From Flaccisagitta enflata (lineage: Eukaryota): a stretch of DNA of 64,000 nt. Positions 1,389 through 44,475 of this stretch are shown here, piece by piece; position 1 is the stretch's first letter, and each line of letters begins with the position of its first letter. The notes under the pieces were generated by a model that made no database searches, was not told the DNA's origin, and saw only the letters and a list, made by a program, of their open reading frames with translations. Both the position numbers and the translations under genes were made by a program. The stretch lies in assembly GCA_965153355.1 (NCBI GenBank), contig OZ231126.1:17856001-17920000 (forward strand), in the 5' to 3' direction.

Positions 1389-4342
1389 CAGGCCTGATTC
1401 TAAAGTGAGCCCGCTCTCTATTTTGCTTTCGGGCTATCATGTTTTGCTGGATGTGAGCCCAAGAGGCTCTTTCAAAGTAGGCTATATATATGATCTTTTA
1501 TTCGTGTTTAACATAGTAAGCACAGATCGTACGAGGCACATCAAAAAACTAAAACTACTACAGAGGTAAATCAGTTACGAGATAGGAATGAAAGTGCAGG
1601 GTTGCCAATTTGAGGCAGTCGATTTTCAAAAGTGCGTTTTCTCTTTGCAAATAGGTCCGTGACAGAAAGATAGCCAAAAGACTCTCTGAGCGTTTTTATG
1701 CTTTCCCATCTTTGATAAGAAAATATTCTTCGAATAGCGTCATTGACTGCAACGTGGAGTGAATGCATGTCTTTGTAGGGAAACGTGATTACATCAGAGG
1801 CATATGTAATAATTGGAATACATACACTGTAAAGTAACTTCATTTGTACCGTTTCGCTCGGGCCATGTAAAACATTTAGGATCGAATTTGTACTCCTATA
1901 GAAAGAACTACGTGATTTTGCCGGAGAGCAAGTAAAGTTGGTGCCAGATCTTAAATAAACACCCAGATATTTCCATTCTGAGACAAATTCTAGTGGAGCA
2001 CCATTAAGAGTGATTGGTGCGCATGAGAAAGACTGAAAATGTTTACCGAAATACATCAATTTGGTTTTTCTTTCATTGTATAAAATACACCATGAAAACG
2101 CGTATTCTTCACAAATGTCGAGTAATTTTTGCATTGCTTGTCTGCTGGGAGCCAACAGGCAAACATCGTCCGCATATAAAATACATGCAATGAAATAATT
2201 CAAAATCTGACATCCCATGCCAGACTTTTGTAATCAACTCGTCCATGTACACTGCCCAAAATCTGGCGCTAATTACACCACCTTGTCTTACACCAGATAT
2301 TACTGAAAATGCTTCACTAATCGAGTCATGCCATTTGCAAACACTTGTAAGATTAGAGTACCAGTAATACAAAATTCGTATCCAGCACAGATGAAATCCG
2401 CGCTTCATCAACTTTAAGAACAAGCCGCTATGACTCACTCTGTCAAAACCTTTCGTACAATCAAGGAAAGATGCGTATATATGCGAGCCATGATCGGTAA
2501 AGTAGTCAATACGTCTAACAGAATATATAGCATGACTAGTCGAATGGTGCTTTTTATAGCCAAATTGTAAATCGTCAGAAGAGAGCAAATCACCTGTTTT
2601 CAAAAGAACAGCATGTTCAAATAGAAAGGAAAAAACATGGCTGAGAGTTATCCCTCTGTAATTTTCTACAGATGATGCATCCCCTTCTGGGTCTTTAATG
2701 ATAGGTGAAATAACGCCTCGCAAAAATTCAGAAGGAACGTATCCATGTTGAATCAAGGAATTGAATAGTAAATGAAGGTGAACTACAAGTTGAGGTGAAC
2801 CGTACAAAATGTGTTCTGGTTTAATGAAGGAGCCTGAGGCTTTACCAGCTTTAACCTTGGACATGACCTGGATCATATCGTCCCATGATAAGTAATTTTT
2901 AGAAATATCGTCAGATGCATAGTCATTTATGTAAGCAGAGTAAGCCGTGGAAAAATCGCGAGTAAGCTGTCTGGCGCGATCTGAATTGGCATCATCATAG
3001 ATTTTTTTGAAGCCTGCGGCAAATTCGTTGGCGATGTCAGTATTGTCAGTCTTGCCATTAATTCTTGCCGAACTAATGTCGGTTTTGCCGTGTATGTTTT
3101 GCCACTTCTTCCAAAAACATCTATGATCGCCATCAATAAGATTCTCATGAATTCTATCACTAAGATTCTGGTCAAACAGCTTTTTCGCTTTTTTTATAGC
3201 GCATTTGTAACGAAAATGTGATTGCTTTTTCAAATCAAAAATTAAGCCCGACGGCGGTCGACCTGAATCACGCCACAATATAAATGCATCATGCGATGCC
3301 CTTTTAAGCTCGGATAGTTCTTCATTCCAGTAATCTTTCGAGATTCCTGGCCGTGAACGCGGAATACATTTGTCTGCATCACTAATAGCTGATACAATGT
3401 CGGTAAAATACTTCTCTATGGCAAATATGTGTTCGTTGCTGTCGCAACAAAAATTACCGTGAAGAAGATCGTGAAAGGGAATATTGATATTACGCAAATT
3501 ATGTTCCATCAAATCACAATATTGCAGTCTTACTTCTTCTTTTAGATATATATCGTGCTCACAAGTTGCATACATGCTAAATGTCTATGGGACCTTTTTG
3601 TGATTCAAAATGTAATCATTTTCGCATAAGTATGAACAGATAACGGCGCTAGATACAAGAATTATTCCAAAATAAGTTTTTACTCGCGGATCGGTTATTC
3701 TGTTAGAGGAATTGACCGTCAATTGTCTCGTCTGTCAGTTGTGTTCTGATTAAGTAAAACGGTGTAAAAACGTGCATTACCTTGCGTCACTTTCCCTTCA
3801 TGAATGACAAACCGCACGCCATTCCAGTTTGCGATATGCTTAGATGCCGTCCTTCCAGAAATTTGGATGGACAGATCTTGTGGCGTTCTTAGCGCATGAT
3901 GATGTTGACGTAAGTGACGACCCGATCCTCGGGTCGCCTCATATGTTGAGTTACGTTACGGCAACCTTTTTCTTATCACGAGTTTTTAAAGACACCTAAA
4001 TATATCGTGGATTCTTTTATACAATGGTTCTACAACATAAAATCCACTAGCTCAAGTCAGATAAAAGGCCGTTTATTGCGGAAAAAAAAGTTGAAAACTG
4101 ACAATAGTACTTGGTTTATTCCACCAAATAGATTTTGATGATGGCAAACTGGTCTCGATCAGTAATCTTTAGGAGAAGTCTTTATCTTTCGCTCAAATAA
4201 AATGTTTCCCTTAGTTACTTCAATATGCAAATTAGGGTTTTATTACATTCTTTATCTGGCTCACTGTTTCGGTCGGGCTCAATCAAATTGTGAGAAGTGA
4301 GCCAGGAAGGTTCACTCAAAGAAATAGCTAAAGCCAGGCCTG
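1389..4342. mobile_element. Non-autonomous hAT-type DNA transposon hosting a LINE insertion
   Basis: Termini CAGGCCTG...CAGGCCTG; 8-bp flanks aatgtaag (1381-1388) and aatataag (4343-4350) with one mismatch; subterminal GTGAGCC/GGCTCAC motifs at both ends. Confidence 0.65.
1484..3575 (-). pseudogene. 5'-truncated L2/CR1-group (Daphne/Crack-like) LINE ORF2 fragment, reverse transcriptase, frameshifted
   Basis: ORFs 2109..3575 and 1571..2218 carry NYRGITL, QFGY, FLDCTKGFDRV, GVRQGG, YADD and KYLGV; frameshift near 2220; AATAAA and short (TA)n tail on the minus strand near 1484-1502. Clearly related to ORF2 at 50360-53137. Confidence 0.92.
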
Positions 4343-5129
4343 AATATAAGGCAGCATTATTTTAAGGCATCATTTGGCTCAGTCCCTTGTCATGCGGCCT
4401 AGTGATGTCCAACTGTAGATGTCCACTATCATCCGACTGTATTCTTATTTTTGCGTTCATCCAATTTCATCTCTGTCCCTTTTATAGTTTAAATCCTTTC
4501 GGCCCTTCTCACTCCAAAGCCTCAACCTACGTTTTCCACCTACCGCATCCCTGACGCCATTTTTGTCCCAGCAGCCTATTAGTTTCGTCATCTCCCTTCA
4601 GCCCTTCCACCTTCCTCCTTTCCACCATCAACCCTTCACCACATTCCCTATCCCTGACAACCATCTAAGTCCCAGTAGCCCTTCTTTCACGCGACTTCAC
4701 GTTGCTGTTTTGGTTGGTCCGTCACGTGTTTAAATTGTGAGCGGCCCAACCATCTGCAACTGGGGTGCCGTGTATCCGACCGGATTCGTTGTATCCCTTC
4801 AGCCCCTCCACCATCAGCTCTTAACCGCCTTCCCCATCAACGATAATATTTTTGGCCCAGAATTTTGTCATCTACCTTCAGCTCTTCCACCTTCAGCCCT
4901 GCACCACTTTCCCCATCCTTAACCTCATTCGATCCACCACCGGATTTTCGATCCACCGAAGTTAATTTGCTTTTACTATATACCTTTCGCAAGGGAAGAA
5001 AAAAAGGATAAAAAAAAAGTGAAAATAGAAAGACAGAAACGATTTTTCGTGATTTTTGTTTACGTTATATAGGGTTACAGGGAACAAATGAGAATTTGGG
5101 CGACATCTTACGCACAACCAATTTTGTGG

Positions 5130-5336
5130 TTTAGTCGCGTGCTACGCGACTCTACACCTCGCTATGTCGGTCGGTCAGTCGGTTAATCCGTTGGTCGGTT
5201 GGTCCCCTTTTTACTTTTTCGTCGTTTTTGAGCTTTCTGAGACTACTGCTCCTGACCAAATGCTGTGGTGACCTTCTCCAGCACTGCTCCTGCCCACCCG
5301 CACGCGACTGGGGTTGCCGTGTATCCGGCCTTGTTT
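5130..5336 (+). mobile_element. Helentron-associated non-autonomous element (HINE/DINE-1-like), family A
   Basis: T-run + AGTCGCGTGC subTIR + ACGCGACT partial IR, (GGTC)n microsatellite, 3' subTIR GCACGCGACT, GCCGTGTATCCGGC hairpin, TTGTTT end, no TSD. Confidence 0.8.
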
Positions 5337-5439
5337 ATCGTGATGTGAGATGGTTACCGTAACAATGTACATTACTACAAAATTTGTTAGTACTGAACAG
5401 CCATGCACTCTGAGCCTTCGGCTTATTTTGGTGGTACTA

Positions 5440-6055
5440 CTACCTAGGAAAAAAGTCTTCGTTCACTTGATGAGGATGTTCATTGAATGAATAAATATCA
5501 AGTAGTTTTGGGTTTTCTCTCTTTCTATACTTTATCTGATGTCCCGCCTGGGTTATGACTGCTTCTATTTGGCTTAGAGACTGTTTTCTGAGTTCTAAAA
5601 CAAATTATGCCAAGACATGTCACTGCAGATTTTAGCGCATTTTCTTTTTCAGCCATTCAGTTGACATCATTTATTCTTCCTGTTCCAGAGGCTTAGTTTT
5701 AGGCAAAACGTTTTGAACTGTAGTGAAATCGGGACTTAATGGGACACTCATATGTTGAATGATATAAAAATCCTTATTGATATAGTTTATCTACTAAAAC
5801 AATGTTATGACTTCCATGCTGACAAATGCGCTTTCCAAACCAGATTCACCTCTGAATTTCCTGCATTTTCAAAAAAGGGTAGTCATCTTCAAATAGCTCT
5901 CATTTCTAAACGCTTTGAGCCAGAGGAATGGGATTGGTCCCAAATGATAGATCTTTCGCAGTAGTTTCTGAATCTCACCAATTTTTCCTACTTATCATTT
6001 CTAGAAGTTTATTTATTATTTCTTTAAGGTGAACGAAGACTTATTTCCTAGGTAG
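5440..6055. mobile_element. Tc1/mariner-type MITE
   Basis: About 27-bp TIR CTACCTAGGAAA(A/T)AAGTCTTCGTTCAC, flanked by TA on both sides. Confidence 0.85.
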
Positions 6056-6456
6056 TACTACAAAGAATTGATAATCATCAAAAAATAAAGCAATGTCTCG
6101 TTTTCATCACGTTTCGCGATTAGTGCTTCAGTACTTAGAATTTTAGCGTCGGACTTCCAACTGTGGTTTCGCGTATTTTCCTAACGATTTCTCCGGAGAA
6201 TTAATGGTAAGAAGGAAATATGCTGTAGAAAGAAGAAATGAGGAGATTGCAAGATTCAAGATTTCAGAAATGGGGATGAGGTGGAGGGGGGGGGGAAGAT
6301 GAGGGTAAAGAAGGTGCAAATGCGCCCTGAAACCCTGAAACCCTAAATGCCTCCGCGGGTTCAAAAGTACAACTGGAAATGATTACAAAAACACTAAATT
6401 CTGATAAATGCTTCCAAGCTGGAAATTAGGGGATTTTCCTTGACGGAATGAAAGAG

Positions 6457-6501
<45 letters not shown>

Positions 6502-7007
6502 ACACACACACACACACACACACACAACCAGATAGACAGACAGACAGTCAGAGTCACAGACCGCAGAAAATATGATAATCAGACACATAGACTAGTGAAC
6601 GCACAGACAGGCAAACAAGTACGTAAAAAAAACAAATAGACTGATAGGATAACAGAAAGCCAGACAGACAATCGAAAAAACTGGATAAACTGAGTAAATA
6701 AGTTGGTCGAGGGATCATAAAAAAGACACTTACATTACCAAAAAAACTCTTTTTGATGAGGACCGACGGACATTATTACGTAACAGAAGCAGGGCAGTTT
6801 CTTCGATCTTGGATTTTAGTGAGGCAACTATTGATTATCGCCATCAAGCAGAATTGAGGTTAACGAGGCTTCGGAAAAGTGGTGCATCTTCATTTGTCAG
6901 CGCGAAGAGGTCATCAAATCGTCAACATCACCGCTTTCATAATTAATCCCTCATTCCGAAGCTCATCGACCAGAACGTGAACGACGTCGACGACGACGAC
7001 GAGAAAA

Positions 7008-7300
7008 GGGGGGGGGGTTAGCTCAGGGGTAGAATACTCGCCCTCAGCCCACTGGGTGGCGAGTTCGAGCCTCGCAAACGAAAGTTGAAAGGCTCAACCT
7101 AGCAATGAGGTTCGAGGATGGGTTTCCTGGTGAATACCAGTGTAAATAGCTAGCTAGCGGGAAGGGTAGGCCGTAGGACGTCACGATGATATGATAATTG
7201 GGAATCTGACACCAAAAAGACCCGATGGCGCCGCCCAAGTGGTGGGTTGATCACAAACAGCGCTCAAATCGCCCGGTGATTCCCCCGGTTAACAACAACG
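7008..7300 (+). mobile_element. tRNA-derived SINE
   Basis: Pol III A-box-like TAGCTCAGGGG (7019) and B-box-like GAGTTCGAGCC (7061) at tRNA spacing, about 230-bp body, (AAC)n 3' tail. Confidence 0.7.
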
Positions 7301-7305
7301 GCGAG

Positions 7306-7452
<147 letters not shown>

Positions 7453-7721
7453 CTGGCGACGCTGCAGCAGCTATCAGTTTCCACTTTCCAGGCTAATGCG
7501 GGATTTCTCCATTTTTCAGGGATTCTTTCGTCATAATTCAGGAGAATAGAAAAATGAAAAATAAATATTCTGGCTGATGCTTTTAGCTTTGAGTTCGTGA
7601 TGAAATGAGGTAGAATTTCTGAATTCCAACATGATTCGAAAATTGAGTCAAAACCGTCTTCAAATTAACCCTAAAAATTCACTCTCCTTATCCATCTGGG
7701 TTATCCATAATGATGTGAGAT

Positions 7722-7724
7722 AAG

Positions 7725-7794
<70 letters not shown>

Positions 7795-7920
7795 TAAGAA
7801 AGAAAGAAAGAAAAAAAGAAAGAAAGAAAGAAAGAAAGAAAGGAAGGAAGAAAGAAAGTCAAAAAGAAAGAAAGACAGAAAGAAAGAAAGAAAGAAAGAA
7901 AGAAAAAAAGAAAGAAAGAA

Positions 7921-8011
<91 letters not shown>

Positions 8012-8045
8012 AAAAAAGAAAGAAAAAAAGAAAGAAAAAGAAACA
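7722..8045. repeat. Compound (GAAA)n/(GACA)n microsatellite
   Basis: Direct reading. Confidence 0.95.
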
Positions 8046-8448
8046 TAAAAAAAAACTGAAAAACAGAATGGGAAAATCCATCAACATTCTTTTATCTGTT
8101 TCCGTTTCTCGTTAAGTCAGGAATTCTCATGTTCGTCAATCGTCGATGGCCACTCATTGACGGGTGAATCTGTCGCCTCTTATATTTTCAGTCGCGTGCT
8201 ACCTGACTCTACAACTCACTTTGTCCGCCCAGCTGTCCGTCCCTCCGTCCCTCCGTCCGTCTCTCGTTTGTCGCAATGTCCTCTTTTAGTCTTTTTCTTG
8301 AACAATTCTTGAGATTCTAACAGTCATTATGAATGGGCAATAGGTACCCATAAATTTATGGAAAAAAAAGTGACCATAAATTTATGGCAGAAAAACGCTG
8401 TTTTTTATGATTTTCTTTGGAATCATAAAACATGATATGTTTTTTGGA

Positions 8449-8713
<265 letters not shown>

Positions 8714-9175
8714 AAAAGTCGTTTTACCGCTCTCTACCGGTCTCCATCACACGGTAGTTTTGAATCTGAATCATCGTTGATGTCGGTTCGTCAATTATTA
8801 TGTATTAATCATTCCAGGCCATTGGTTCATTTTTATCGCTCATGGCTTAGTTTACCACTCCCTCCCTTACAGCTCCTTGGTGAAGTTGAGCTTCACTAGA
8901 GCGCATGCCAAGGGATTGGACGAAACTATGCCTTATACTGAAGCTGCCTTATTGCCAACAAAGAAATAACGGCAAAATCTCTCAAGAGACAGTGAGTCAA
9001 ATACCTTTTAAGCGGGCGTGCCTTATTAGCGGGTGCGTTCTAGCGGTGCTCCACTGTAATTGTATGTCCCCCGTCCCCCGTTTCCTCCTTTTCCATTTAA
9101 TGCCAATGATTCTTTTCCTCTTCACCATCATTTCCTTGTCAAATCCTTTAGGAATACTGATTGCTGCTCTGAAAC

Positions 9176-24401: not shown

Positions 24402-26148
<1,747 letters not shown>

Positions 26149-27744
26149 TTTGTCTTGGTGTCAGAGCGGAGGCGAGGATCACCCTTGATAATCAAATGCA
26201 CCCACACAATTCTTAAGAAAGTTACTTCTTTGTGCGCTTGACGTGAAGACTGTCTAGCACAAACTTTGTGGCAATGAGTAAGAAATCAGAGAGTCTCTTT
26301 ATTCAATTCTCTTTCTCTTACTCCAGTCATTCATGATTATCTACAATATCTATATATGTCTGGATGGACTAACAAATCTTATCTGTTAGAGGCGAAATTC
26401 TGTTATAGCCAATATAGGAGATAAAGTTGAAGGGACTATGAATTTGCATACCTTATATGCGAAATTCCATAAGTAACGGGTCCGTTAGAGTGCAATTTAA
26501 CTACTGTAAATTTAACAATCTATAATGGAACTGATGCCCATCAGAAACAGTTGAACCATGAAACAACGGATGTCAAGGGACCAACCAATTTTATCTGTTA
26601 TAGGTGGAGTTCTCTTTTTGCCACTTTATAAGCTAAAAAAAAAAAGAAAGAAATAAAATGACAGGTGGGTTCTGTTACTCTTGTAGCCAGTATTACTACG
26701 CCAGAAAAAAAAAATGCACCCTTTTGTTGATTATTTTCATTTTCAGGCTAATATGGTCTGTTTTAAATTCGTTATCATCATTCACGCTGTTCGCGTGTGC
26801 CGTTTACTCTGTATAGGACTATCCATTCACGCTGTTCGCGTGTGCCGTTTACTCTGTATAGGACTATCTGTGCTTTAATGTTAATGTACTTTTATAACCC
26901 AATAAGCTGTGGTGGTTCAGGTGTACTGTTGCTCTGTATTTTTCATGAAAATACATGATTCTCTCTCTGTGTAAGTTTTTTTGAAGATTTTCAAATTCTC
27001 TTTCATTCTGGACCAATCCAAGGTCTGTATCTCAAAACGTTTAGAAGTTACAGCTTATCAAAGTCAACCTCTTTTTAAAAAAAAAAATGCTCTTTTTTCA
27101 ATAGGATTGTAAAACAATGGTTTTACTCTTTCTTATGCCATTCCTTAACGAAAAATAGCTAGAAATGACAGACTGGAGCCAAGTAAAAGTTCAAATTCAT
27201 TCTAATGGTCTAAGATTTTGGTCGATTATCTTTTAATTCAATATAACTATTAACCATTTAAAAATGCGGCTTTTTTGATGATTCGCGTAGTACAGGGTGT
27301 GTCTGCACTAACAACGACAAACACTCAAAAAGTTTTAATAAGGAGTTTCATCATTCAGACAAATGGCCCAACGGAGAGACGTGGACACAGAGACTGATAG
27401 AAGCTCATGCTCGCTCTAAAAGCGATATGGTTTATGACTTAAATAGAAAGCGTCGACCTTTATCTTCTAGTATAAGTATTCCTAAGACGATCGTTTTTCG
27501 ATTTTCCAATGACTTCCTTTGTTTTCCCTTCTTTCCCTGGGTTACCATGAAAAATTGCGATTTTTTCCTCTCTGGGTTTCAAAATGTCAAAGGTCATCGG
27601 ATAAATCGGATTTCTTTTCCTTTCTTCTTTTTCTTTTTCATTTCCTCATCATCGAAAGTAAACAGGGAGAAAAAATCTTAAAACAGAAAAAAGGCGCCAT
27701 GAAAACCTTCCGAAAATTATTCGACATTTGGTTTTTTGAGTGAG

Positions 27745-29757: not shown

Positions 29758-30855
29758 CTTTTTTTGGGGCAGCGGTCCCAAAGGAAAAAAGGTGCTGTAG
29801 AAATCTGTCTGTCCATCAATACATCTGTCTGTCTGTACGTCCATCCTTACATCCATTTGTCCACCTTGCCTTTCCTCAGGGCTTCGTTTCCGTCAGGTCC
29901 TTTTCACATTTTCATTTTTTTGTTGATTTTTCATGTTATTCGATGGAAATTCTGGACTCTTTTTTTTTTTGTCAATTCTCCATGTTATTTAATGAAAATT
30001 TTGCATTTTTTTGCCAACTTTCCATATTACCCAATGGTTTTGGGGCAGCGGCCCCGAAGGGGACGATGTCCTGTAGAACACAGGGGACTTTCGTTCGTTC
30101 GTCCGTCCGTCCGTTCGTTCGTTCGTCCCCCCCCCCCCCTCATCGGGCCCCTCAGGCCTCAAATCTGACCTCTCAGGCCTCAAATCTGACCTCTCAGGCC
30201 TCAAATCTGACCTCTAAGCCCTCAAATTTGACCTCTCAGGTCTCAAATCTGACCTCTCAGGCCTCAAATCCAGCCTCTCAGGTCTCAAACCTGGCCTCTC
30301 AGACCTCAAATCCAAATTCTCAGGGCCAGCTATCTCAAGCTTCCGATTGACATTCTCAGGCCTTACATAAGCCTTCTTAGACCTCAGATAAGGCTCTTGA
30401 AGGCCTTCAGTCAGCATCTCATCCACTTCTTGAGGCAGGAAAAGCAAAATTCCCCCTGTGTTCTACAGGACATCGTCCCCTTCGGGGCCGCTGCCCTGCT
30501 TCCCCTCACTCCAATTCACAATCACTCAAAGCAGGGCAACGGGTATCGCTGACCACATTTTGCCCTTGGGCGACCTGTTTATTTTGTTTTGTTTTGTTTG
30601 TTTTTTTTTTTTTTTTTTGCATTTTTTAATTTTTGGTCAATGTTTCATGGCATTCAATGAATTTTGGCATCTCATGCAGATTGATGGATGAACGGACGGA
30701 CGGATGGATGGATGGACCAATTAACGGATGGATGGACAGATTCCCCCTGTGTTCTACAAGACTTCATCCCCTTTGGGGACACTGCCCTTCTCCCCCTCCA
30801 CTTTAATCACAGAGCACGGGTTCCGCTGACCATTTTCTGCTTTTAGGCTGCTGTT
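29758..30855 (+). mobile_element. Family B Helentron-like element (old copy) containing a younger family B copy at 30038-30579
   Basis: Outer head ttttggggcagcggtcccaaagg and tail ccccctgtgttctacaag...ccgctgacca; inner copy has an intact IR and a 21-bp tcaggcctcaaatctgacctc array. Confidence 0.7.
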
Positions 30856-31058: not shown

Positions 31059-31436
31059 TGAGAGTTGTAAATCCCATAAATAGCTCGGAAGCCATGATTT
31101 TATCACCATGGCCATGGAGATATATCACTTGCGGACAGTTGATTGATTTACCGAAGCAGTAGTAATTAGTATAGACTGAGAAGAATAGAGAAGACCTGGT
31201 GATTAATTGCAAATCAGAACTTTAAATCTTCTCTATTTTTTTTTATTATTATCATTTTATTATATACTTTTTTATTAATTTAAAGTTTAGTTTAATAGAC
31301 GAGCAGATTAACGGTCCAACGGAAGACGGACCGACTGATAAAGGACTTGAGTTGTCAAGTTTGCTCGTTTGGATATTTTTAGTACTTCCATTTATCTACG
31401 TAAAAGGCAGACAGACACACGGACAGAAAGACTCAA

Positions 31437-31549
<113 letters not shown>

Positions 31550-31587
31550 GAAAGACATACATGAATGAAGCGACAGACAGACTGAAT

Positions 31588-31633
<46 letters not shown>

Positions 31634-31666
31634 AGGACAGACGAACAGACAGGAGGACATAAAAAC

Positions 31667-31728
<62 letters not shown>

Positions 31729-31940
31729 TGACAGGTATAGTTGTGTCAAATGGAACGTCCATTGCGGATTGTTTGATGGCATCAATAGGTTAATGGGAGG
31801 CTGGCAGGCAAACGAGAAAAGGCTCGATAAAAAGGAAAATTAGCTGTGATGTATGATCATATCACATTTAGACATTGTACATGAAAATTATAGCATTAAA
31901 TGAAAATAATAACATTAAAGATGCTTCCCTATTTTTTTTC

Positions 31941-33340: not shown

Positions 33341-33653
33341 AATACACTCCTTTTTTGATCCTACTCAAAATCATAAAAAATCGGAAAAAATTCAATTCGC
33401 AATTTTCATAAATAAATCTTTAAAAATTCATAGCGCAAAAAATATTTGTCGTAGAGCATTCTGCTTGGCGCCAAATGAAAGAGAATTATCAAATTTACTT
33501 ACCCTATCAATTTCGTCCGAGGGTACAATCGGTCGGTGGAGACCCTCAACTTCCGCATAAGAAAATGAAAACCCTGTTTCTCTCAAATATGTCAAAAAGT
33601 CGAAGACTGACTTCGACTTTTTTCCCGATTAATGTGAATACGTGAGCGAGTGA

Positions 33654-34570
33654 TGTTAGAAATGTATGTCCGTCCGTTTGTTAAGTATGTGTGCTTTTGT
33701 TTCTTTTGCGTGCTTTTGGCTTTTCTTCTTTCTCTATCATTCAATGCCGGTGTCTTTTGTTTCTCGCCATTTTTTATATTGAACGCTAGATGGGTAACCA
33801 TATGGTTGCGCCTTGTATTTTGTGCCATTTGTTTTTATTACGTAGGCATACATACGTAACTCGTCTTTCGTATCATCCAATTTTTGGATTGATTGATTTT
33901 ATTTATTTGCGGCATTGCTTCCTAAAGTGATTGATTGATTTTTCGTGATTGATTGAATGTGCCCTTGGAGTTTGCTAATTTCAATAATCTCTCATCTTTT
34001 TATTGCAGATGAACTTATGAACGGACAATTAACGTTAATTTGACTTCGACAGACTGTGGGTTGAAACCAACGAAAGTGGGCCTAAAAGTAAGTTTTATAG
34101 ACGCGTCTTTGCTTTTATTAACGTTGTTTTTATCTTGTCTTCCGGTCTGTTATTTTTGTCTTTTGCCCTTTTGCATTTTTATCGCCGGATTTTAGTATGG
34201 TTTTTATCGCTTGCCCGATCAGCTGACTATGGGGATGATATGGATGAATCTAATGGGATAGGCCGGGGCAGGGGCAGGTATTATCAGGTGGCATGGGCTC
34301 TGAAGAAGATGAACATGTTGTCATGTGCTGTTTCTGTCCTTTATTGTGTCCTGTCTCGATTTCATGTTATCTTTTGCGTTTGCTGATCAAAATTAACGCC
34401 CACTTTCCCTTTCATTTTTCCCCCCTCTCTTCAGTTGTTGAAATTTTTATGGAATAAACGAGACGATCGCCTTCCTATTTTCCAATCGGCCAACTTTCTT
34501 TCACCACAAGTCGTCAGTCAGATAGACGCTCATAGACAGTGCCAGTTGAAACTCGTGGGCGTAACTTATA
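33654..34570 (+). repeat. 5' LTR (917 bp, TG...TA)
   Basis: Matches 41491-42406 except 2 substitutions and a 1-bp indel seen by eye; AATAAA at 34453-34458. Confidence 0.95.
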
Positions 34571-34633
34571 TTTCAACAATTTAAAAACGACGCGATTCTT
34601 TCCATCTTCGACCTCCGAAAGCGAAATTGGACA

Positions 34634-35263
34634 ATGGCAGCCGCGCGTAGCGACGACACCGTCTCGACTGCTTCAACGTCATCTCGTGTATCTCACTTCG
34701 GTTTGAATCAGTGTCCGAGGTCGAATCGTTTGCGCGCAATGAGGAACGACATCACTGCGGAAATGGAAGGATGCCGGCGCCTTTTCGACGCCGTCGCCAC
34801 TTGCACCGAAGGGACGAACGACTTCGATGACGCCGCCTGCGAATCAGATGGCGCTCGGCACGGCCTTCGGGATATGGTGTACGACTTTATATCATACGCA
34901 AGGCAGATGGCGCTCGACTCGATGCCCGGCGACCCTCTTCGATTCGCGGCGTCCACTCTGCGTCGAATTCGGCGTGAATGGGACTCCATGCGTTTCTTCG
35001 ATCGTGAAAACTATCCAGAGGGTTTTCCTTCCAACGCCGACATAGTCAACGCAGTGAATACGACATCGGGAATCGTAAAAGACCCGTCAATGAATTCTCA
35101 TGGAACAGTCTCCCAACTGACACTCACGCCGCCCGTGACAATGTTAATGGCGCTCCAACTCCAAGGATGCGAACGTCGTCGCCAAACCCCGACGGATCCG
35201 AATACTTGCCACTTCCGGTCCCTCGACATGGTGCGCAATCTCCAACTGGCGGTCAATTCTTAA
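34634..35263 (+). CDS. Gag N-terminal ORF (209 aa), overlapping the main Gag ORF in the -1 frame
   Basis: First ATG (ACAATGG, good context) 64 nt after the LTR; the downstream frame is open from 35008. Confidence 0.6.
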   Translation: MAAARSDDTVSTASTSSRVSHFGLNQCPRSNRLRAMRNDITAEMEGCRRLFDAVATCTEGTNDFDDAACESDGARHGLRDMVYDFISYARQMALDSMPGDPLRFAASTLRRIRREWDSMRFFDRENYPEGFPSNADIVNAVNTTSGIVKDPSMNSHGTVSQLTLTPPVTMLMALQLQGCERRRQTPTDPNTCHFRSLDMVRNLQLAVNS

Positions 35264-38200
35264 ATCTGCCGCCGATCCAAAGAGGAGATGCCGTCAATCA
35301 GTGGGTCTCAGATCTGGTCTCGGAAATCGAACCTGCGCGTGCGTCTCCGATGGAGCAAGCTGACGACATGCTTGCGGATCTCGACGACGCCGATGCTCTC
35401 GCAAGAGGTCGTGGGGTGATCCACGGATTAACGCCGCAGGAGAGGGCGAGGCGACGCTTTGTCAACAGGAGTGCGGAGAGAGACAGATGGGGTAGACAGC
35501 TGGAGGAGGAAATGCGACAAGGCCGTCGGCTAATAGACGATATGCAGCAGCAACAACGGGAGGAGGAGCAGCGACAGCAACAGGAGCAACAGCAGCAGCA
35601 TCAATTGCAGATGCAGCAGCAACAACTCCAACAGCAACGTCAACTCCACCGACCACAGGAGCAGCAGCAAACGATGGCTCAACGGCAGCAGCAAGAGCTG
35701 TTGCAGCAGCAGCAGTTGCAACAACTCCAACAATTTCTTCAGCAAGATCAACATCAGATCCTGCAGCCGGCGCCACAACATGTGGATCAACAACAGCAAC
35801 AAAACGATCAACAGCAGCAACAACAGCAGCAGCAACAACAGCACCAACAAGATTTGCTGCTTCAGCAACAACAGCAACAACAACAAGAGCTGCAACAATG
35901 TCAACCGGCAACGCAGCCGCAAGAACAACAACAACAGCGGCAAAATGATGCAGAAAAACGTATGCAACAGCAACTGCAGCAACAACAGCAACCTTCCGCC
36001 GCAATCCCAGCGGTGGTAGTGGATCCTCCAGCGTCAAATGACCATCTTGTCGAAAGCATGAATGTTAGTGAGGAGACAGAAGAAGCGAGACAGCAACGCC
36101 TTGCAGAACAACGACTGCGCATGATGGCTGAAGGTGAAGGTGGTGGTGCAGCAACAGCCCCAAAGGCGCCGATCGCGGTGCCATTGGGATTCCAACAGCG
36201 AAGCTCATCACAAGAAGACAAAGAGTTATACGACAGAATGTGTAACTTTCGCCAGCAGCAGCAGCGAGATGAAGATAGAAGGGCAGGAGTATTCAACAAT
36301 GCGGCAGAGATGCAACGAAGGCATTGGAATAGCCTGAACGACGGCGGCATTGGTGGAGCTTTAGAGCAGCGAGATGTGAAGCTTAGACAACTGTCTGAGC
36401 TGGACAAGCAGCAGCCGCAGCATCCGTCAAAGGACCGTCGATCTATTTTCAATTTGAACTTACAGCAACGTCATGTGCAGCCAGTGGAAACGTCCGTTAA
36501 GCAGCCGATGCAGCAGCAGCAACAGGTGGAGCAGCAGCAGCAGCAAGGACAGCGACAGCATCAACTGCAGCAGCAGAATGAGCAGCAACAGCATCCTGAC
36601 CAGCAGCAGCAGCTTCAACATCAACAGTGGCAGCAGCAACGGTTTCAACAACAGCAACAGCATCAGTATCAGCATCATCAAACTCCAGCAGCAACGATTC
36701 TCCCTACCGCACCGGAAGTGATCTTCGAGAAGCAGATTGGTTCTGCTAGAAGGGAGACTGGACTTCCCCGTCAAGAGGAAAAGGTCTTCAATACAGCCGG
36801 AAGCGGAGGTGATGCAACGGAGGCGATGCGCAGGAGGCAGAGGCAGGAGGCCGCTGACGCGAAGTTGGCACAGCAGCTGCAGGATAAGGAGAGAAGAAAA
36901 GTCGCTCCAAAGAAGACAATGAGTGGATTGCAGCCGAAGGCGCCAAAAGTAGCGCAAGCGCCTCTAGCAACGCCTCAAGCGGAAGTCATCCAGCAGAATC
37001 AACGTTTGCAGCAAGAAGTGGATAGTTTGAGGATGCAGATTCAGCAGAGAGACTTTGACCTTGCCGCAGCGAGAGAAGAAGAAAAACAACGAAAAGAAGA
37101 ACAACAACAGCGACAGTACGTCCGCCAAGATTTTGATGCTCCCCGATTCCATCGAGATGATCGTCAACAACAAATGAATCAGCAAGAAGAGGTTGGGTGG
37201 AGTGTGAAAACTACCAAAAAGAGATCTCCGGTCAAAGTCGGGGGTCAATACGCCCTTACCCAACAAAACCCAGCGTATCATCAGGTGGAGCTTCATCAAG
37301 TAGCTCGTCAACCGGAAGTTCATGTACAGATGCCCAACAATCCGGCTCTGGACATGTTCTTGGAGAGGGCGGCGTACAACGATTATATGCGAGCAAGGGA
37401 GGTCGGCCTCAAAGCATTGGAGAGAGCAAGACCTGAGAAGCCTCTGCAGGAGCTTTCATCCACCGATTTTATGATGTGGAAGAGGAAGTTCAAAGATGCT
37501 GAAAAGCATGAAGGCTTGACGCAAATGGACATCTTATTGGAATTGCCTAAGTGGTTTGCTGGTCCGGCAAAGGAGATCATTGAAACTGCGACGATTGATG
37601 CAACTGAAGCGACAGCAAGAGGAGAGGTTGACGACGCCTTCGCAAAAATGGACATCGTCTTTATGGCAAGGCGCTGCAACATTGCGGCGCTGTTCAACGA
37701 AATCGTCGCGGAGGCGAAGATCCAGTCGGCCGACCATGCAAGGCATTTCAATTTGTCTGCAAGGTTGCAAAAAGCAAAGAAGATTGCGAGGACCTGTGGA
37801 GAGGTGCAACAGTGCTATCGTGACGAGCTGCTGCAGGAGATCCTCAATAAGAGGGTCCCTCATCTTGCAGATAAATTCTGGGAAAAGCAACATGAAGCAG
37901 CCCAAAATGGTCAGTTATTTTCATTCGATAACTTGGTTCATATGATTGAGACATGGGCGGTGATTCAGCGCAACAAAGGAGCAAGCTGCAAAACAGCATC
38001 AGTGGCAGCAGTCGCAACGACAGAAAAAGAGGCGCCATCATCATATGAGGATGCCTTGACCAATGGCAAGCAAAAAGTGCAGTCGACGGACCGCTGCAAC
38101 GTCTGCAGTGGAATGCATCAAACGGAAGAGTGTCATCAGTTGTTAGAGTTGGAAGTGGACGCGAGAGTTCAGAAGATCATGTCTCGACGTCTTTGCTTCC

Positions 38201-38469
38201 ACTGCCTCGCGCCAGGACACAACGCCAAAGGGTGCGCGAACAGACCAACTTGCCAGATCTGCAAGAAGCGGCACGCGACTATTCTCCACGGGCGCACCTA
38301 CAAGAAAGAAGAAAAGGAAGAGAAGAAAGGAGAAAATAAGCAGGGAAATAAAGTACCGCTGGCTCCCTTCAAAAAGTCAGAGGATGCGGCTGCAGTAGCA
38401 CCAACGGCCCCGTCGACGACGGAGGCAGCCGATCCAACGGAAGTAATCTCTCCTAACGCCACGGCATGA
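35167..38469 (+). CDS. gag: BEL/Pao Gag with extensive polyglutamine-rich N-terminal half
   Basis: 1100-aa open frame; CNVCSGMHQTEEC, CFHCLAPGHNAKGC and CQICKKRHATILH knuckles; capsid-like region near FMMWKRKF. Confidence 0.9.
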   Translation: MRTSSPNPDGSEYLPLPVPRHGAQSPTGGQFLNLPPIQRGDAVNQWVSDLVSEIEPARASPMEQADDMLADLDDADALARGRGVIHGLTPQERARRRFVNRSAERDRWGRQLEEEMRQGRRLIDDMQQQQREEEQRQQQEQQQQHQLQMQQQQLQQQRQLHRPQEQQQTMAQRQQQELLQQQQLQQLQQFLQQDQHQILQPAPQHVDQQQQQNDQQQQQQQQQQQHQQDLLLQQQQQQQQELQQCQPATQPQEQQQQRQNDAEKRMQQQLQQQQQPSAAIPAVVVDPPASNDHLVESMNVSEETEEARQQRLAEQRLRMMAEGEGGGAATAPKAPIAVPLGFQQRSSSQEDKELYDRMCNFRQQQQRDEDRRAGVFNNAAEMQRRHWNSLNDGGIGGALEQRDVKLRQLSELDKQQPQHPSKDRRSIFNLNLQQRHVQPVETSVKQPMQQQQQVEQQQQQGQRQHQLQQQNEQQQHPDQQQQLQHQQWQQQRFQQQQQHQYQHHQTPAATILPTAPEVIFEKQIGSARRETGLPRQEEKVFNTAGSGGDATEAMRRRQRQEAADAKLAQQLQDKERRKVAPKKTMSGLQPKAPKVAQAPLATPQAEVIQQNQRLQQEVDSLRMQIQQRDFDLAAAREEEKQRKEEQQQRQYVRQDFDAPRFHRDDRQQQMNQQEEVGWSVKTTKKRSPVKVGGQYALTQQNPAYHQVELHQVARQPEVHVQMPNNPALDMFLERAAYNDYMRAREVGLKALERARPEKPLQELSSTDFMMWKRKFKDAEKHEGLTQMDILLELPKWFAGPAKEIIETATIDATEATARGEVDDAFAKMDIVFMARRCNIAALFNEIVAEAKIQSADHARHFNLSARLQKAKKIARTCGEVQQCYRDELLQEILNKRVPHLADKFWEKQHEAAQNGQLFSFDNLVHMIETWAVIQRNKGASCKTASVAAVATTEKEAPSSYEDALTNGKQKVQSTDRCNVCSGMHQTEECHQLLELEVDARVQKIMSRRLCFHCLAPGHNAKGCANRPTCQICKKRHATILHGRTYKKEEKEEKKGENKQGNKVPLAPFKKSEDAAAVAPTAPSTTEAADPTEVISPNATA

Positions 38470-40402
38470 CTGGCGGCGGGCAACGTCGCGGTCCGTCTCT
38501 TCATTCGACGGCGTTGTCCGTCCGATTGTTCCAGTGACTATTATAAACAATTCTTCGGGCGCGAGAGGACTATATGCTATGATCGACTCAGGCGCTGATC
38601 GCGACGTAATCAGTATCAGTGTTATTCGCAGTCTTATGATTCCAACAAAAACAGTGCAAATGACGGTGATTACTGTGGGAAGTCATGTTGTTGAGGATCG
38701 TTTCATCGCATCGTTCACCATGCAATCGGTCGACGAGGAATATGTCGTCGACATCAACGACGCGTTGGTGGGTGATTTGTTAACGAGTGAACGCGATATT
38801 CCTCCTTTTCTCCGCGACCTATCCGACCAGCCTCACATCGGAGAAATAAAGTTTCCAGAAGCAGAAGGCGGTGTGATGATGATCATCGGAGCGGCGCATG
38901 CGGACGCCGCCGTCGCTCAAGAAATCCGCCGGGGGCCTTCAGGATCCTTGACTTGCTTCAGATGCTTGTTCGGTTGGACTGTGTGTGGAAAAACGGGGAA
39001 GAGGGGGCGAGATTTTGCGTCGATCAACGCCATCGCAACGGATGATCGCATCCTCAACGACAGCATCGATCGCATCCTCGACAATCGCGTCTTCAACAGC
39101 AACATTGACCGCATCTTCTACCATGACTTTGCATCACCAATCGTCTCGCAAGAGGAGATGGGCGATTCCCTTGAAAACATCAGAGCGTGCAAAATGTTAG
39201 AGGAAAAGACATACTTTTGCCCAATTGCAGCAAAGAATCCTCTTCCTAAACCGGAAGTTACGCAAGACGTCTTGGAGGAGGCGCGCAAACAGCTCGTCAA
39301 GTCAATGCAGCGGCAACATTATTCCGACGTTTTCGAACAATTGGAGTTGGGAAAAACCTTTAAGCCAGGAAGCCGTCGTGACTTTATCATCAAGAATAAG
39401 GAGGTGCTAAAGTTGAACCCTTTCGTCGATGACGACGGCATCCTTCGCGTCGGCAGCCGATTGGAGAATGCCGACATCGCACATGACGCTAAATTTCCCT
39501 TCATCCTTCCGCCAAAAAACGAGAATGTGAAATCATTAATTCGCCATTATCATCATAATGATTTTCACGCGGGTGCAAAGCATACATTGTGCCAATTACG
39601 CCAATTTGTGTGGATTACAGAAGGTCTTCAGGCTGTCAAGAACGTCGTCAACACGTGCTTTAGATGCCAGAAGAACTTTAAAAAGAACGCGAATCAGCGA
39701 ATGGCTAATCTTCCATCAAATCGCATCAATCCTGCACCTGTTCTTACAGAGACCGGATTGGGTACGTCAGCCGATGCGATGGTAAATGCAATCATCCGCT
39801 TTGCAGTAAGGCGCCCAGGAATCAACCGATTCACTTTAGACTGTAGAATTAATCTAATCATCGGTCTCGTCAAGCGCCATTTTGCTTCCATCTCTATTGG
39901 CGCCATCCTTCACGTCGATGCCTTCAACACTGCTGTCGTCGATGTTGAAGGAATTCTCAACTGTCGTCCTCTGACAGCGCTCAGTGATGATTCAAATGAT
40001 TATGAGACCCTCACACCGAATCATGTCCTCAATCCATCAACATCCGGCAATGCCTCTCTGGATCTGGCGCAACAAGGCGTCAACTCTGATGCCGACTCAG
40101 CGAAGATTCAATGGAGGCGTGCGCAATCGTGTGTGGATGCGTCTTGGAAATCGTGGAGGGTCGAATATTTGTCGCTTCTTCACGCGCGAAGCAAATGGTC
40201 GAGATCCGAGAGAGACTTTGCGGTCGACAACATGGTCGTCGTCATGGGCGAAACGCTGCCTCGTCACAATTGGAGTTTAGGACGCGTCATGGGTGTCGAG
40301 GGATCATCAGCCCATGTCCGGAGGGCTTTTTCTCGACGCCAAGATGAAAAGATCGCGACGAAAGACCGCATAAAGCTTCTGCGGCTGGGATTGGATTCAT
40401 AA
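38447..40402 (+). CDS. pol: Internally deleted Pol: aspartic protease fused in frame to connection, HHCC zinc finger and a catalytically deleted integrase
   Basis: VRPIVPV, MIDSGAD, LFGWTVCG, LNPFVDDDGILRVGSRL, KFPFILP, HHNDFHAG...CFRC, ILNCRPLT, LTPNH, EYLSLL, PRHNWSLGRV; no YVDD or RNase H motifs. Frame open stop-to-stop from 38447. Confidence 0.88.
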   Translation, partial: SLLTPRHDWRRATSRSVSSFDGVVRPIVPVTIINNSSGARGLYAMIDSGADRDVISISVIRSLMIPTKTVQMTVITVGSHVVEDRFIASFTMQSVDEEYVVDINDALVGDLLTSERDIPPFLRDLSDQPHIGEIKFPEAEGGVMMIIGAAHADAAVAQEIRRGPSGSLTCFRCLFGWTVCGKTGKRGRDFASINAIATDDRILNDSIDRILDNRVFNSNIDRIFYHDFASPIVSQEEMGDSLENIRACKMLEEKTYFCPIAAKNPLPKPEVTQDVLEEARKQLVKSMQRQHYSDVFEQLELGKTFKPGSRRDFIIKNKEVLKLNPFVDDDGILRVGSRLENADIAHDAKFPFILPPKNENVKSLIRHYHHNDFHAGAKHTLCQLRQFVWITEGLQAVKNVVNTCFRCQKNFKKNANQRMANLPSNRINPAPVLTETGLGTSADAMVNAIIRFAVRRPGINRFTLDCRINLIIGLVKRHFASISIGAILHVDAFNTAVVDVEGILNCRPLTALSDDSNDYETLTPNHVLNPSTSGNASLDLAQQGVNSDADSAKIQWRRAQSCVDASWKSWRVEYLSLLHARSKWSRSERDFAVDNMVVVMGETLPRHNWSLGRVMGVEGSSAHVRRAFSRRQDEKIATKDRIKLLRLGLDS

Positions 40403-41475
40403 AAAACGCTAAGTTTTGAGAGAGAGAGAAAAAGGCGCATGGGCCTGTCCATTAGTAACTATAGATATGAGTGATTGAAACTCTGATTTGTTATATTTAC
40501 AGAGAGTTGTTATTATTCATATTTGGTTCTGATTATCCATGCTTTCATCTGTCCTCTTGTCAATTATGTTATCCATTTCCATTAACACATCAAAAACACT
40601 GATTCATTCGCTCTGTCTACATGTACATATGATTGTGCCAAAATCCGTTCTTATCATTATCAGTTCGCGTTAACGAACATTTCAAAGCTTCCGCTGACGA
40701 CGTTGTTCCATCTGCGAAGTCAGTCTACATCTTGAAGTCGCTCGTCGGAGTCAAGATGTCCCGTCAGCATCCGGCTCCACCTGCGCCTTTCGATGCGGTC
40801 GCCGTTGACGACATCATTCATCGCCTTTCGCCCACGAGTCGACGAGATGTTGGAACCCGGAATGACCCGCTCGTCTCTGTAATGGAGAAGGCGCAGGTGA
40901 TGTGGTCGTTCCATGATGCTTGCTAATTTTTTCTTTTACTTGACAGATTCGTTTTTATATATAGTTAGTAATTTATTTAATTTTGTCTTGTTGTGTTTGG
41001 TTCTTTGGAACATGTACATTTGTTGTGTTTGTTTTAGACATGGTCTTTTTAGTCATTATTACGAATACTTTCGTATGACATGTTTTAGTAGTATGCCCCT
41101 ACTCATTATTTTCCACTCTCAAGTCAAATCCCAGGCTTGGAGTGCTCCAAGGCCCGTTCCCCTTTCCCCCCCCCCTTCCCCTTAACTTTTTCAGAACGGG
41201 TGCCTCAACCTCCTCGTCGCCGCCTCGTCTCTATCCGCGTCATCGTGATCGTTGAAAATTTGCTGATGGTGGATCCTTTCCGGACGGGAATCATCTTTCG
41301 TGCAGTCGTCGATCTGTTGATAGTTAGGGTGGGGATGTAAGAGGCGGTGGACGGGGGGGGAGGGGCGGGGGCTGTATCTATGTAAATTTTTTTTTAAGGA
41401 AGGTAGTATCGGTTTTTTAGTAGGGTTTCCCCGACTGGAAACTAGATGTCAGATTTTTGAAATTCGTGAAATTCC

Positions 41476-41490
41476 AAAAATGGGGCAGAA
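41476..41490 (+). promoter_or_regulatory. Putative polypurine tract
   Basis: aaaaatggggcagaa immediately precedes the 3' LTR. Confidence 0.6.
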
Positions 41491-42406
41491 TGTTAGAAAT
41501 GTATGTCCGTCCGTTTATTAAGTATGTGTGCTTTTGTTTCTTTTGCGTGCTTTTGGCTTTTCTTCTTTCTCTATCATTCAATGCCGGTGTCTTTTGTTTC
41601 TCGCCATTTTTTATATTGAACGCTAGATGGGTAACCATATGGTTGCGCCTTGTATTTTGTGCCATTTGTTTTTATTACGTAGGCATACATACGTAACTCG
41701 TCTTTCGTATCATCCAATTTTTGGATTGATTGATTTTATTTATTTGCGGCATTGCTTCCTAAAGTGATTGATTGATTTTTCGTGATTGATTGAATGTGCC
41801 CTTGGAGTTTGCTAATTTCAATAATCTCTCATCTTTTTATTGCAGATGAACTTATGAACGGACAATTAACGTTAATTTGACTTCGACAGACTGTGGGTTG
41901 AAACCAACGAAAGTGGGCCTAAAAGTAAGTTTTATAGACGCGTCTTTGCTTTTATTAACGTTGTTTTTATCTTGTCTTCCGGTCTGTTATTTTTGTCTTT
42001 TGCCCTTTTGCATTTTTATCGCCGGATTTTAGTATGGTTTTTATCGCTTGCCCGATCAGCTTACTATGGGGATGATATGGATGAATCTAATGGGATAGGC
42101 CGGGGCAGGGGCAGGTATTATCAGGTGGCATGGGCTCTGAAGAAGATGAACATGTTGTCATGTGCTGTTTCTGTCCTTTATTGTGTCCTGTCTCGATTTC
42201 ATGTTATCTTTTGCGTTTGCTGATCAAAATTAACGCCCACTTTCCCTTTCATTTTTCCCCCTCTCTTCAGTTGTTGAAATTTTTATGGAATAAACGAGAC
42301 GATCGCCTTCCTATTTTCCAATCGGCCAACTTTCTTTCACCACAAGTCGTCAGTCAGATAGACGCTCATAGACAGTGCCAGTTGAAACTCGTGGGCGTAA
42401 CTTATA
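41491..42406 (+). repeat. 3' LTR (916 bp, TG...TA)
   Basis: Direct repeat of 33654-34570, followed by TSD AGTGA. Confidence 0.95.
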
Positions 42407-44475
42407 AGTGAAGTTACCAACACGACGGCGATCCGGGCGAGGACCGATAGATTCTTTTTCTACGGGGTTGTCAGATAGAATTAGAACTAAGTAGTGCTTT
42501 CAGCGATACTTACTATGGCAACAAAAGAGAGAACAACCACCATTCATGAAAAGAACCGCCGCTCAAAAAAGATCTTTAAAACACACTCTACTAAGTTCCG
42601 TCGCCTGAAAGCTTCGCTAGTGAACGGAATTTGTTGAGTTAGAATTAGTTTATTTTTTTTTAAGATGAAGACGCTCAGACCAAGGAGCAAATATGCGATG
42701 CTGTTATTAAGATGACATCAAAGGATGGATTCATCATTAATATTCCACATTAGGAGCTTTGCTTTGGAATCTGTGGACTAGTACTGAATAGCTTTCTAAC
42801 AAAAAAAATGTTTCATGTGATTACGGCCAAAGTAATCATGTGATCGCCATACAACTCACCTAGGATTAGTCCAGGGGTTGGATGGTTATTCATGCAAAAT
42901 CTCAGAAAATTTCATACAACACTTTTTTGGCCACGCTAATTTGAAATTTTTGGATAGGTAGGCTGGTTCGGCTGGTTGCAATATCTGAAATTTCTTGAAT
43001 CTTGACATATTAGTAAACAAGGTCAAATAATGTTACCATACAAAAAATCAAGTCAATCCATCAATCCGTTCAAAAGATATGAGCTTTCAAAGTTTGGGTA
43101 AAAAAAGTCACGACGATTTCCGCCACTTAGAGAAAAAAAGTCACAAACATGTTTTGTTCTCAGACTTAGCGTATTTCACGCTTGAGCGCTCATAAAATCA
43201 TGAACTACCTTTCGTCTTTTGATCACTACACCTGAAATATTAGGAGTATTTGAAAAGTAAGAACAACCGAGGAAAGCTTAAACGCTAGGCTATCTAATGA
43301 TGTAAAATTTGATAGTATTATTTTTAAAAATATAGCAACACGGTTACTCCTTCAGACCGGCCACCTTAAAAGTTGAATTGGTAAATCCCTCTAGACAGGC
43401 GAAGACGAGCGAAGGTTTAGATCTAGATATGTCAAAAGATTGTATCGGTTGCAACGGAGATCGGTAAGCGGGGAAGTCAGGGTAATAACTTTTGTTTCAT
43501 TTACCTAACAACCAGGAGGCCGCCCTTAGAAACGTACCCACAATTCTCTCATGCCTTGTCTCAAACTTTGCTTAGAGGAAAGGGCTTTAAAGTATTAACT
43601 ACGTGGGGGGAGGGGGAGCTTAGCCTGAGACGCTCATCTGTCTCATGGTTTTACCAGCGTGTGTCTCCGGGACCCACACTGAGTGTCGGCAATGTTGTTG
43701 CTTTGCCCCAAGAACTAAACAAAACACTCTCGGTCCATCTTTTTAATCGCGCAACTGCATACGCTTCTGTGTCAGTCGTTGGCTCATTTTGGTCTCGTAT
43801 GTACGTGCGACTTTACAATCCGCTTTGTCGGTCCAGCCGTCTGTCTGTACGTCAAATTGTTTAACTACATGCGGCCATTATACTTGCCAAACTTGTCCGG
43901 GTGGTGTCAGAGGAACACGAATTTGTAAAATCATAAAACGGATTAATTTTTCTCGAAAACTAAGTGCATGTAATATTTTGTTGCCAAGATAACTGTGTAT
44001 ATTTTTTTTCTTTTCTTTAAATTTGGCAATTTATCACGATTATTCTGTTACAATCAGAAAAGTTTAGCTTGTTGTGGGGAGGAAAAAATGAATGCAACTT
44101 AACAATGAAATTCGCCGCAGAAATTTTGACGGTTAGAAAACATGGAGGGAAAGAGTCCCGCTTCCGTTATCAACATAAGTCATATGAGTCTGACTGGACC
44201 ATTTACTTCACCTAAATCGGGGAGGGAAAATGTTTTGAGTTATCCATCAAAACATCATAGAGAGCAACGAGAAGAAAGAAAAAGGGGCAACACGAATAAA
44301 GAAACAGGCCAAAACGTTTGGAGAGTTAAGTGTGCTGTTAAACTGGTAACCAAATATGGGGTGGGGAGGAGAAGGAGTCTCCGGGAAGGAAGTAACCAAG
44401 TTTTGAATAAATCATAACAATATGACAAAAGTTAAACACTCGGGCAAATGAACAATATTGACTGTGAGGCTAACC

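Follow-up and report, generated by a model that had tools for sequence, protein, structure and literature searches.

Described priming systems

Priming of minus-strand synthesis by the element's own RNA is established for Tf1, and Tj1 and the Tf1/sushi group have been proposed to use it too (available sections of PMC4600332 and PMC5445492). This agrees with the preliminary description of the present locus, which named Tf1 and related Ty3/gypsy elements as the known cases. Tf1, Tf2, Tj1 and the Tf1/sushi group have no tRNA primer-binding site (PBS); instead, a site adjoining the LTR complements an LTR stretch where the mRNA presumably begins (PMC4600332, PMC5445492). Neumann et al. 2019 predicted self-priming in the plant elements Tcn1 (Ty3/gypsy) and TAR/Houba/Osr-1 (Ty1/copia), by the rule that at least 10 bp of the 5′ LTR complement a region starting 0–5 bp after the LTR (available part of PMC6317226).

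BEL/Pao elements are described differently. The Belpaoviridae ICTV profile, in its accessible text, gives priming by a host tRNA (Arg or Gly) via an 18-nt PBS and calls the replication poorly understood (PMC8742986), and tRNA sites were reported for the BEL/Pao elements Achilles (PMC4580426) and Saci2-like (PMC12471100) in the portions of those papers at hand. The main text of a BEL/Pao survey (PMC3118150) mentions no PBS, tRNA or self-priming. A literature search that covered few subscription papers and no supplements found claims of self-priming for Ty3/gypsy and Ty1/copia, and none for BEL/Pao; an older report, e.g. in early papers on BEL-like elements, may exist. The search thus agrees with the preliminary description that BEL/Pao self-priming is unreported, but the phenomenon had already been extended beyond Ty3/gypsy by the prediction for TAR in Ty1/copia (available part of PMC6317226).

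The element studied here occupies positions 33654–42406 of the window, by which we mean the whole 64-kb stretch of DNA analysed. The boundaries were set by LTR–LTR alignment and the target duplication, and the element and all its features lie on the + strand. Similarly to the Tf1 group, it shows no tRNA PBS and has a site next to the LTR that complements an LTR stretch where the RNA would begin. It differs from that group in its BEL/Pao Pol (Pao peptidase domain, DUF5641), in one G:U pair at position 2 of the duplex and in lacking its own reverse transcriptase (RT), and its RNA start, RNase H cut and accessory U5-IR-like structure are, compared with the Tf1 group, putative features. The signature is purely computational, as are the predictions for Tcn1 and TAR, from which the element is set apart by its animal host and its superfamily (PMC6317226).

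Structure and classification of the element

The 5′ LTR (917 nt, 33654–34570, TGTTAG...CTTATA) was delimited by alignment with the 3′ LTR and by repeat families D5/D7. The 3′ LTR (916 nt, 41491–42406) is directly adjoined by the polypurine tract AAAAATGGGGCAGAA at 41476–41490. A perfect 5-bp target-site duplication, AGTGA, flanks the two LTRs at 33649–33653 and 42407–42411, so the anatomy of an LTR retrotransposon is complete. Both LTRs begin TGTTAG and end CTTATA, and three substitutions and one indel separate them (4 of 917 positions, 99.6% identity). As the LTRs are nearly identical and the duplication is intact, the copy is young and a working primer site is expected. No second copy and no solo LTR of the element was found in the 64-kb window. 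The LTR of this copy ends in ...GTAACTTATA, a TA end that deviates from the usual CA. In a contig of X17 (record 15), a variant LTR of the family ends at the place of window position 34564 in ...GTAATTACA (TTACA) and gives way to unrelated flank, so the usual CA is also represented in the family.

Window gag is spread over two overlapping frames. The N-terminal ORF (209 aa, 34634–35263) is matched at 34649–34831 by gag residues 16–76 of the distant relative L001, described below. The ORF in the second frame (1100 aa, 35167–38469) is Q-rich, with C-terminal Cys/His knuckles, and L001 gag residues 512–830 match it at 37387–38301. Most of this second ORF consists of long Q-rich low-complexity stretches, only the last ~300 aa align with L001 gag, and a Pfam search of the 1100 aa gave no match.

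The pol remnant (622 aa, 38534–40402) contains a protease (DSGA), Integrase_H2C2 (4e-9), a truncated integrase core and DUF5641 (7e-16), the E values being those of the domain search, and lacks RT and RNase H. Its best longer Pol relative, P0003 (1312 aa), showed Peptidase_A17 (PF05380, 5e-29), rve, a weak RVT_1 and DUF5641. Identity to P0003 was 92% over residues 1–223 and 72% over residues 840–1312, with two gaps in the integrase core within the second segment; residues 224–839, which hold RT and RNase H, are missing from the window copy. Between 40403 and the 3′ LTR this copy has no ORF of at least 100 aa.

The Pol domains (Peptidase_A17, integrase and DUF5641 in the family), together with relatives that have a Pao peptidase domain (all 40 longer relatives among the matches listed, by precomputed Pfam lists), place the element in BEL/Pao. 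A Pol of Ty3/gypsy type, as in the Tf1/sushi group, was not found, all named domains and relatives being BEL/Pao. The assignment made in the preliminary description is thus borne out by DUF5641 and by 72–92% identity to a Pol with the Pao peptidase; that description was silent on the missing RT/RNase H, the incomplete integrase core and the two-frame gag. The element agrees with canonical BEL/Pao (Belpaoviridae, Semotivirus) in LTR length (0.2–1.2 kb), gag-pol layout and polypurine tract, as well as in the Pao peptidase domain and DUF5641 of the family's full-length Pol, and it departs from them in having neither the 18-nt tRNA PBS nor RT/RNase H (PMC8742986, accessible text). As the PBS is a replication trait and not a phylogenetic criterion, membership by Pol stands without it. 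Since it has no RT/RNase H, the window copy is non-autonomous and must be copied in trans; its recent insertion nevertheless requires that its cis sites were functional for the enzymes of a helper. The copy at 33654–42406 is therefore a recently transposed, non-autonomous BEL/Pao LTR retrotransposon.

Complementary arms at the 5′ LTR junction

The LTR word TTGTTGAAAT (34435–34444) and the junction word ATTTCAACAA (34570–34579) are exact reverse complements over 10 nt. Pairing grows to 12 nt with A34433:T34581 and G34434:T34580, the latter being the single G:U, giving a left arm, the candidate self-primer AGTTGTTGAAAT, at 34433–34444 and a right arm ATTTCAACAATT at 34570–34581 in the PBS position. 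By LTR alignment the right arm has one base inside the LTR, which ends at 34570, followed by 9–11 internal nucleotides, so that 34571–34581 make up a site of 11 nt immediately next to the LTR end. The Tf1 primer is likewise 11 nt long. Measured against the rule of at least 10 bp, the locus qualifies by a small margin: the perfect match is 10 bp with the final LTR base included and 9 bp within the internal sequence, and acceptance of one G:U brings the latter to 11 bp.

The left arm opens at the A of TCAGTT (34431–34436), which we take to be Inr-like and whose A34433 is the proposed RNA start, and closes 9 nt ahead of the polyadenylation signal AATAAA (34453–34458). By inspection, the first 30 internal bases after the 5′ LTR contain no TGG; a primer site for a tRNA 3′-CCA end is therefore absent. 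The 10-nt arm word occurs in the window in both arms, in the 3′ LTR copy of the left arm (42271–42280) and at one unrelated site (53725), and nowhere else. All of this confirms the layout given in the preliminary description: the exact 10-nt complement, its extension to 12 nt with one G:U from A34433, the left arm just upstream of AATAAA, the lack of a TGG-type PBS and a duplex abutting the LTR end, which the alignment refines to an overlap of one LTR base.

The complement is short and AT-rich, and its chance level depends on position. A perfect complement of at least 10 nt that joins a zone of six start positions at the LTR end to any part of the LTR arose in a fraction of 0.022 of 20,000 Markov shuffles, and the same placed test on real sequence (the element interior and both window flanks) gave 0.010–0.016 of zones. 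An unplaced 10-nt inverted pair within the 981 nt before gag was common (P = 0.29), so position alone makes the match notable. As the match was chosen by eye from a large scan, a coincidence at the 1–2% level is a real possibility, and the window complement by itself is evidence of modest, limited weight.

The arm duplex is weak (−8.5 to −10.5 kcal/mol). The unconstrained MFE structure of the window 5′ region omits it, and that fold has no greater stability than shuffled sequence (z = 0.23). With the duplex enforced, the 5′ RNA lies 1.4 kcal/mol above its MFE, and in this folding model the duplex is thus weak yet accessible.

A distant relative with a longer inverted pair

A scan of metagenome contigs gave seven loci with a Pol 36–46% identical to P0003, of which only L001 reaches upstream of gag. 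Its Pol is 42% identical, with a Pao peptidase domain (E = 1e-29), and gag (2277–4967) is followed by pol (5001–9050) and then a third ORF. The 2277 nt before gag were searched for the longest inverted pair within a 600-nt span, resulting in a perfect 16-nt pair of CCGTTTGGAGTTGTTC (1149–1164) with GAACAACTCCAAACGG (1636–1651). In 3000 shuffles a pair of 16 nt never arose (P < 0.001), and one of 15 nt arose three times. The duplex showed a dG of −26.2 kcal/mol.

The order of features is similar to that of the window: a left arm, an AATAAA (1220–1225) 56 nt further on, followed by a GT-rich stretch, and a right arm upstream of gag. A 7-nt core, AGTTGTT opposite AACAAC(T), is common to the arms of both elements, the base pairs on either side of it being different, and only 2.3% of 16-nt windows of the L001 5′ region share any 7-mer with the window arm. 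The edges of the complement are abrupt in both elements. AGTTGTT-type words recur at seven sites in the L001 upstream region, and the exact words that the two 5′ regions have in common, up to 11 nt long, were at chance level.

The L001 right arm stands 625 nt before the gag ATG, compared with 52 nt in the window. If the LTR of L001 ran from TGTTAGC (458) to ACA (1638–1640), as likeness of motif alone suggests, its right arm would also extend 11 nt past the LTR. No repeat pair that could represent a second LTR was found in L001, L002 or L004, the three loci tested; the placement of the L001 right arm against the LTR end is therefore presumptive. A TATA-like word, TATATAGG, lies just 3′ of the left arm and, if functional, would put this arm in U3.

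Several further features of L001 were noted. A nested complement of 12–13 nt (1231–1243 with 1536–1548) lies inside the 16-nt pair. We rejected it as a TGG-type PBS because its left arm falls on the likely poly(A) site and leaves no R. A word TTATGCAA(C/T) is repeated four-fold between the arms (1400–1520), and a splice-donor-like GTGAGT directly follows the right arm. The fold of the whole region showed no unusual stability (z = −0.24), and a MITE reading of the arms was discarded since there is neither a flanking duplication nor an extended foldback. Positions 1–265 were considered as the C-terminus of ORF3 in a circularly permuted assembly, and this was dropped because they have no significant similarity to the ORF3 of L002.

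A third long ORF follows pol in the relatives L001 (9034–10560, 509+ aa), L002 (2513–4807, 764 aa) and L006 (from about 2551). It may be env-like or accessory; the third ORFs of L001 and L002 gave no Pfam match and no mutual similarity. L004 begins inside gag, L002 and L004 overlap as one family, and their ends showed no common repeat. The L002 contig ends at TCAGTTGACGT (5121–5135), about 150 nt past a G-rich PPT-like run, and this Inr-like end word resembles the TCAGTTGTTG of the window. A viral contig collection gave nothing by DNA word, P0002 or alignment A2, and a prokaryote genome contig collection gave nothing by alignment A2 or DNA word.

Proposed priming and its alternatives

Based on the sequence features, the best explanation is that minus-strand synthesis is primed in a Tf1-like manner by the element's own RNA and not by a tRNA, a reading to which we give about even chances. 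Transcription would start at or near A34433, and the first 10–12 nt of the RNA would fold back onto the site abutting the 5′ LTR (34570/71–34581). RNase H of a helper element's RT would then cut the RNA where the duplex ends on its 3′ side, at about nt 11/12, and the freed 3′ OH would be extended through U5 and R to give strong-stop DNA. Following the first strand transfer, plus-strand synthesis across the primer that was kept would restore the PBS. A PBS recopied from the primer in each cycle could account for the perfect, sharp-edged complements of the window element and L001.

Self-priming is favoured because a young copy has no TGG-type PBS and carries its complement exactly at the junction of LTR and internal sequence. 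It is also favoured by the partner arm, which runs from TCAGTT to 9 nt before AATAAA, where R should begin, and by the low forcing cost of the duplex. The perfect 16-nt pair of L001, with the same topology and the common core, strengthens the reading. Of the self-priming proposal in the preliminary description, the BEL/Pao identity, the lack of a PBS for a tRNA 3′ end and the complement at the LTR junction are facts of the locus, and self-priming itself stands as the best reading, with L001 as added support.

The complementarity may instead be a coincidence in AT-rich sequence, with a tRNA half, an internal tRNA fragment (copia-type) or another small host RNA as the real primer. We consider this somewhat unlikely. 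Half-tRNA priming is documented for Ty1/copia lineages (available part of PMC6317226), and known BEL/Pao elements are described as tRNA-primed in the accessible parts of PMC8742986, PMC4580426 and PMC12471100. The large scan behind the match, the frequency of unplaced 10-nt pairs and an MFE structure that leaves the duplex unused agree with coincidence, but it leaves unexplained both the partner arm at TCAGTT just before AATAAA and the L001 pair with the same core. The site TTTCAACAATTTAAAAAC is, moreover, very AU-rich for a segment of a cytosolic tRNA, and this counts against coincidence with another primer. The window contains no tRNA gene, tRNA and Rfam scans of its 64 kb having given no match.

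It is improbable that the pairing, although real and under selection, has another role, namely as a structure of U5/leader type for initiation, packaging, dimerisation or 5′–3′ contact of the genomic RNA, while something else is the primer. Retroviral U5-IR and U5-leader stems are established (available part of PMC5445492). The two nested long-range helices of L001 (16 nt and 12–13 nt) resemble a structured 5′ region, and its right arm is far from gag and abuts an LTR only by inference. Against such a role, the window right arm lies exactly where a primer must anneal, no other primer site is visible, and the whole-region folds (z = 0.23 for the window, −0.24 for L001) are not unusually stable. 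Last, the copy may be a dead relic whose PBS was mutated away, leaving the post-LTR sequence uninformative. Gag and pol of this copy are indeed defective, but we regard this as very improbable: LTRs of 99.6% identity and a perfect target duplication mean that an 18-nt site should have gained hardly any mutation, if any, after insertion. Furthermore, internal deletions older than the insertion would imply copying in trans, for which the cis sites have to be intact.

Self-priming of the window element would bring a known mechanism to a third LTR-retrotransposon superfamily. A broader claim is that a marine-animal BEL/Pao lineage (Pol 42–92% identical) swapped tRNA priming for Tf1-like self-priming via an 11-nt site abutting the LTR, and this we put forward tentatively, as a possibility that falls short of even chances. 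If it is true, self-priming arose independently in all three superfamilies, and tRNA priming was abandoned more than once in evolution. An RT-less derivative could then multiply in trans to very high copy number. Such elements would be missed by annotation pipelines that rely on a PBS and by defences that use 3′-tRNA fragments, and the lineage would provide a second, unrelated RT/RNase H for studying cleavage of an RNA–RNA duplex.

Family abundance and neighbouring sequence

The element family is highly repeated and diverse. In one DNA run (X1, organism A), 31,263 contig pieces matched 33400–35160 at 85% likeness or more, a stretch whose 5′ flank part holds another repeat. Of the raw RNA run X24, 0 reads matched there, too few to place an RNA start. 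Of the element words sampled, about half were also present in many marine metagenome runs. Full-length family contigs of 8–11 kb, coding for the cluster members P0046, P0048, P0051, P0054 and P0055, exist in public assemblies, and P0058 belongs to a sister cluster. Among the 40 variant rows listed of 166, none fell in either arm, and common variants were seen near the right arm at 34565, 34592 and 34602. A metatranscriptome contig of X9 (record 22), which runs from U5 through the PBS position into the first part of gag, has its first base at exactly 34444, although contig ends are not RNA ends; this position is the base after the cut-off point of an 11-nt primer.

The sequence just 5′ of the element (33400–33650) is part of another repeat, in which the same DNA run shows numerous joints and loose ends. 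Its summed contig depth there was 2.4–5.3 million, compared with about 1 million for the LTR. Further upstream, at 25000–26200, 30114–30344 and 31392–31750, microsatellites and minisatellites are dense, with periods of 8–12 nt, a 21-nt unit repeated eight times, and (CA)n and (GACA)n runs.
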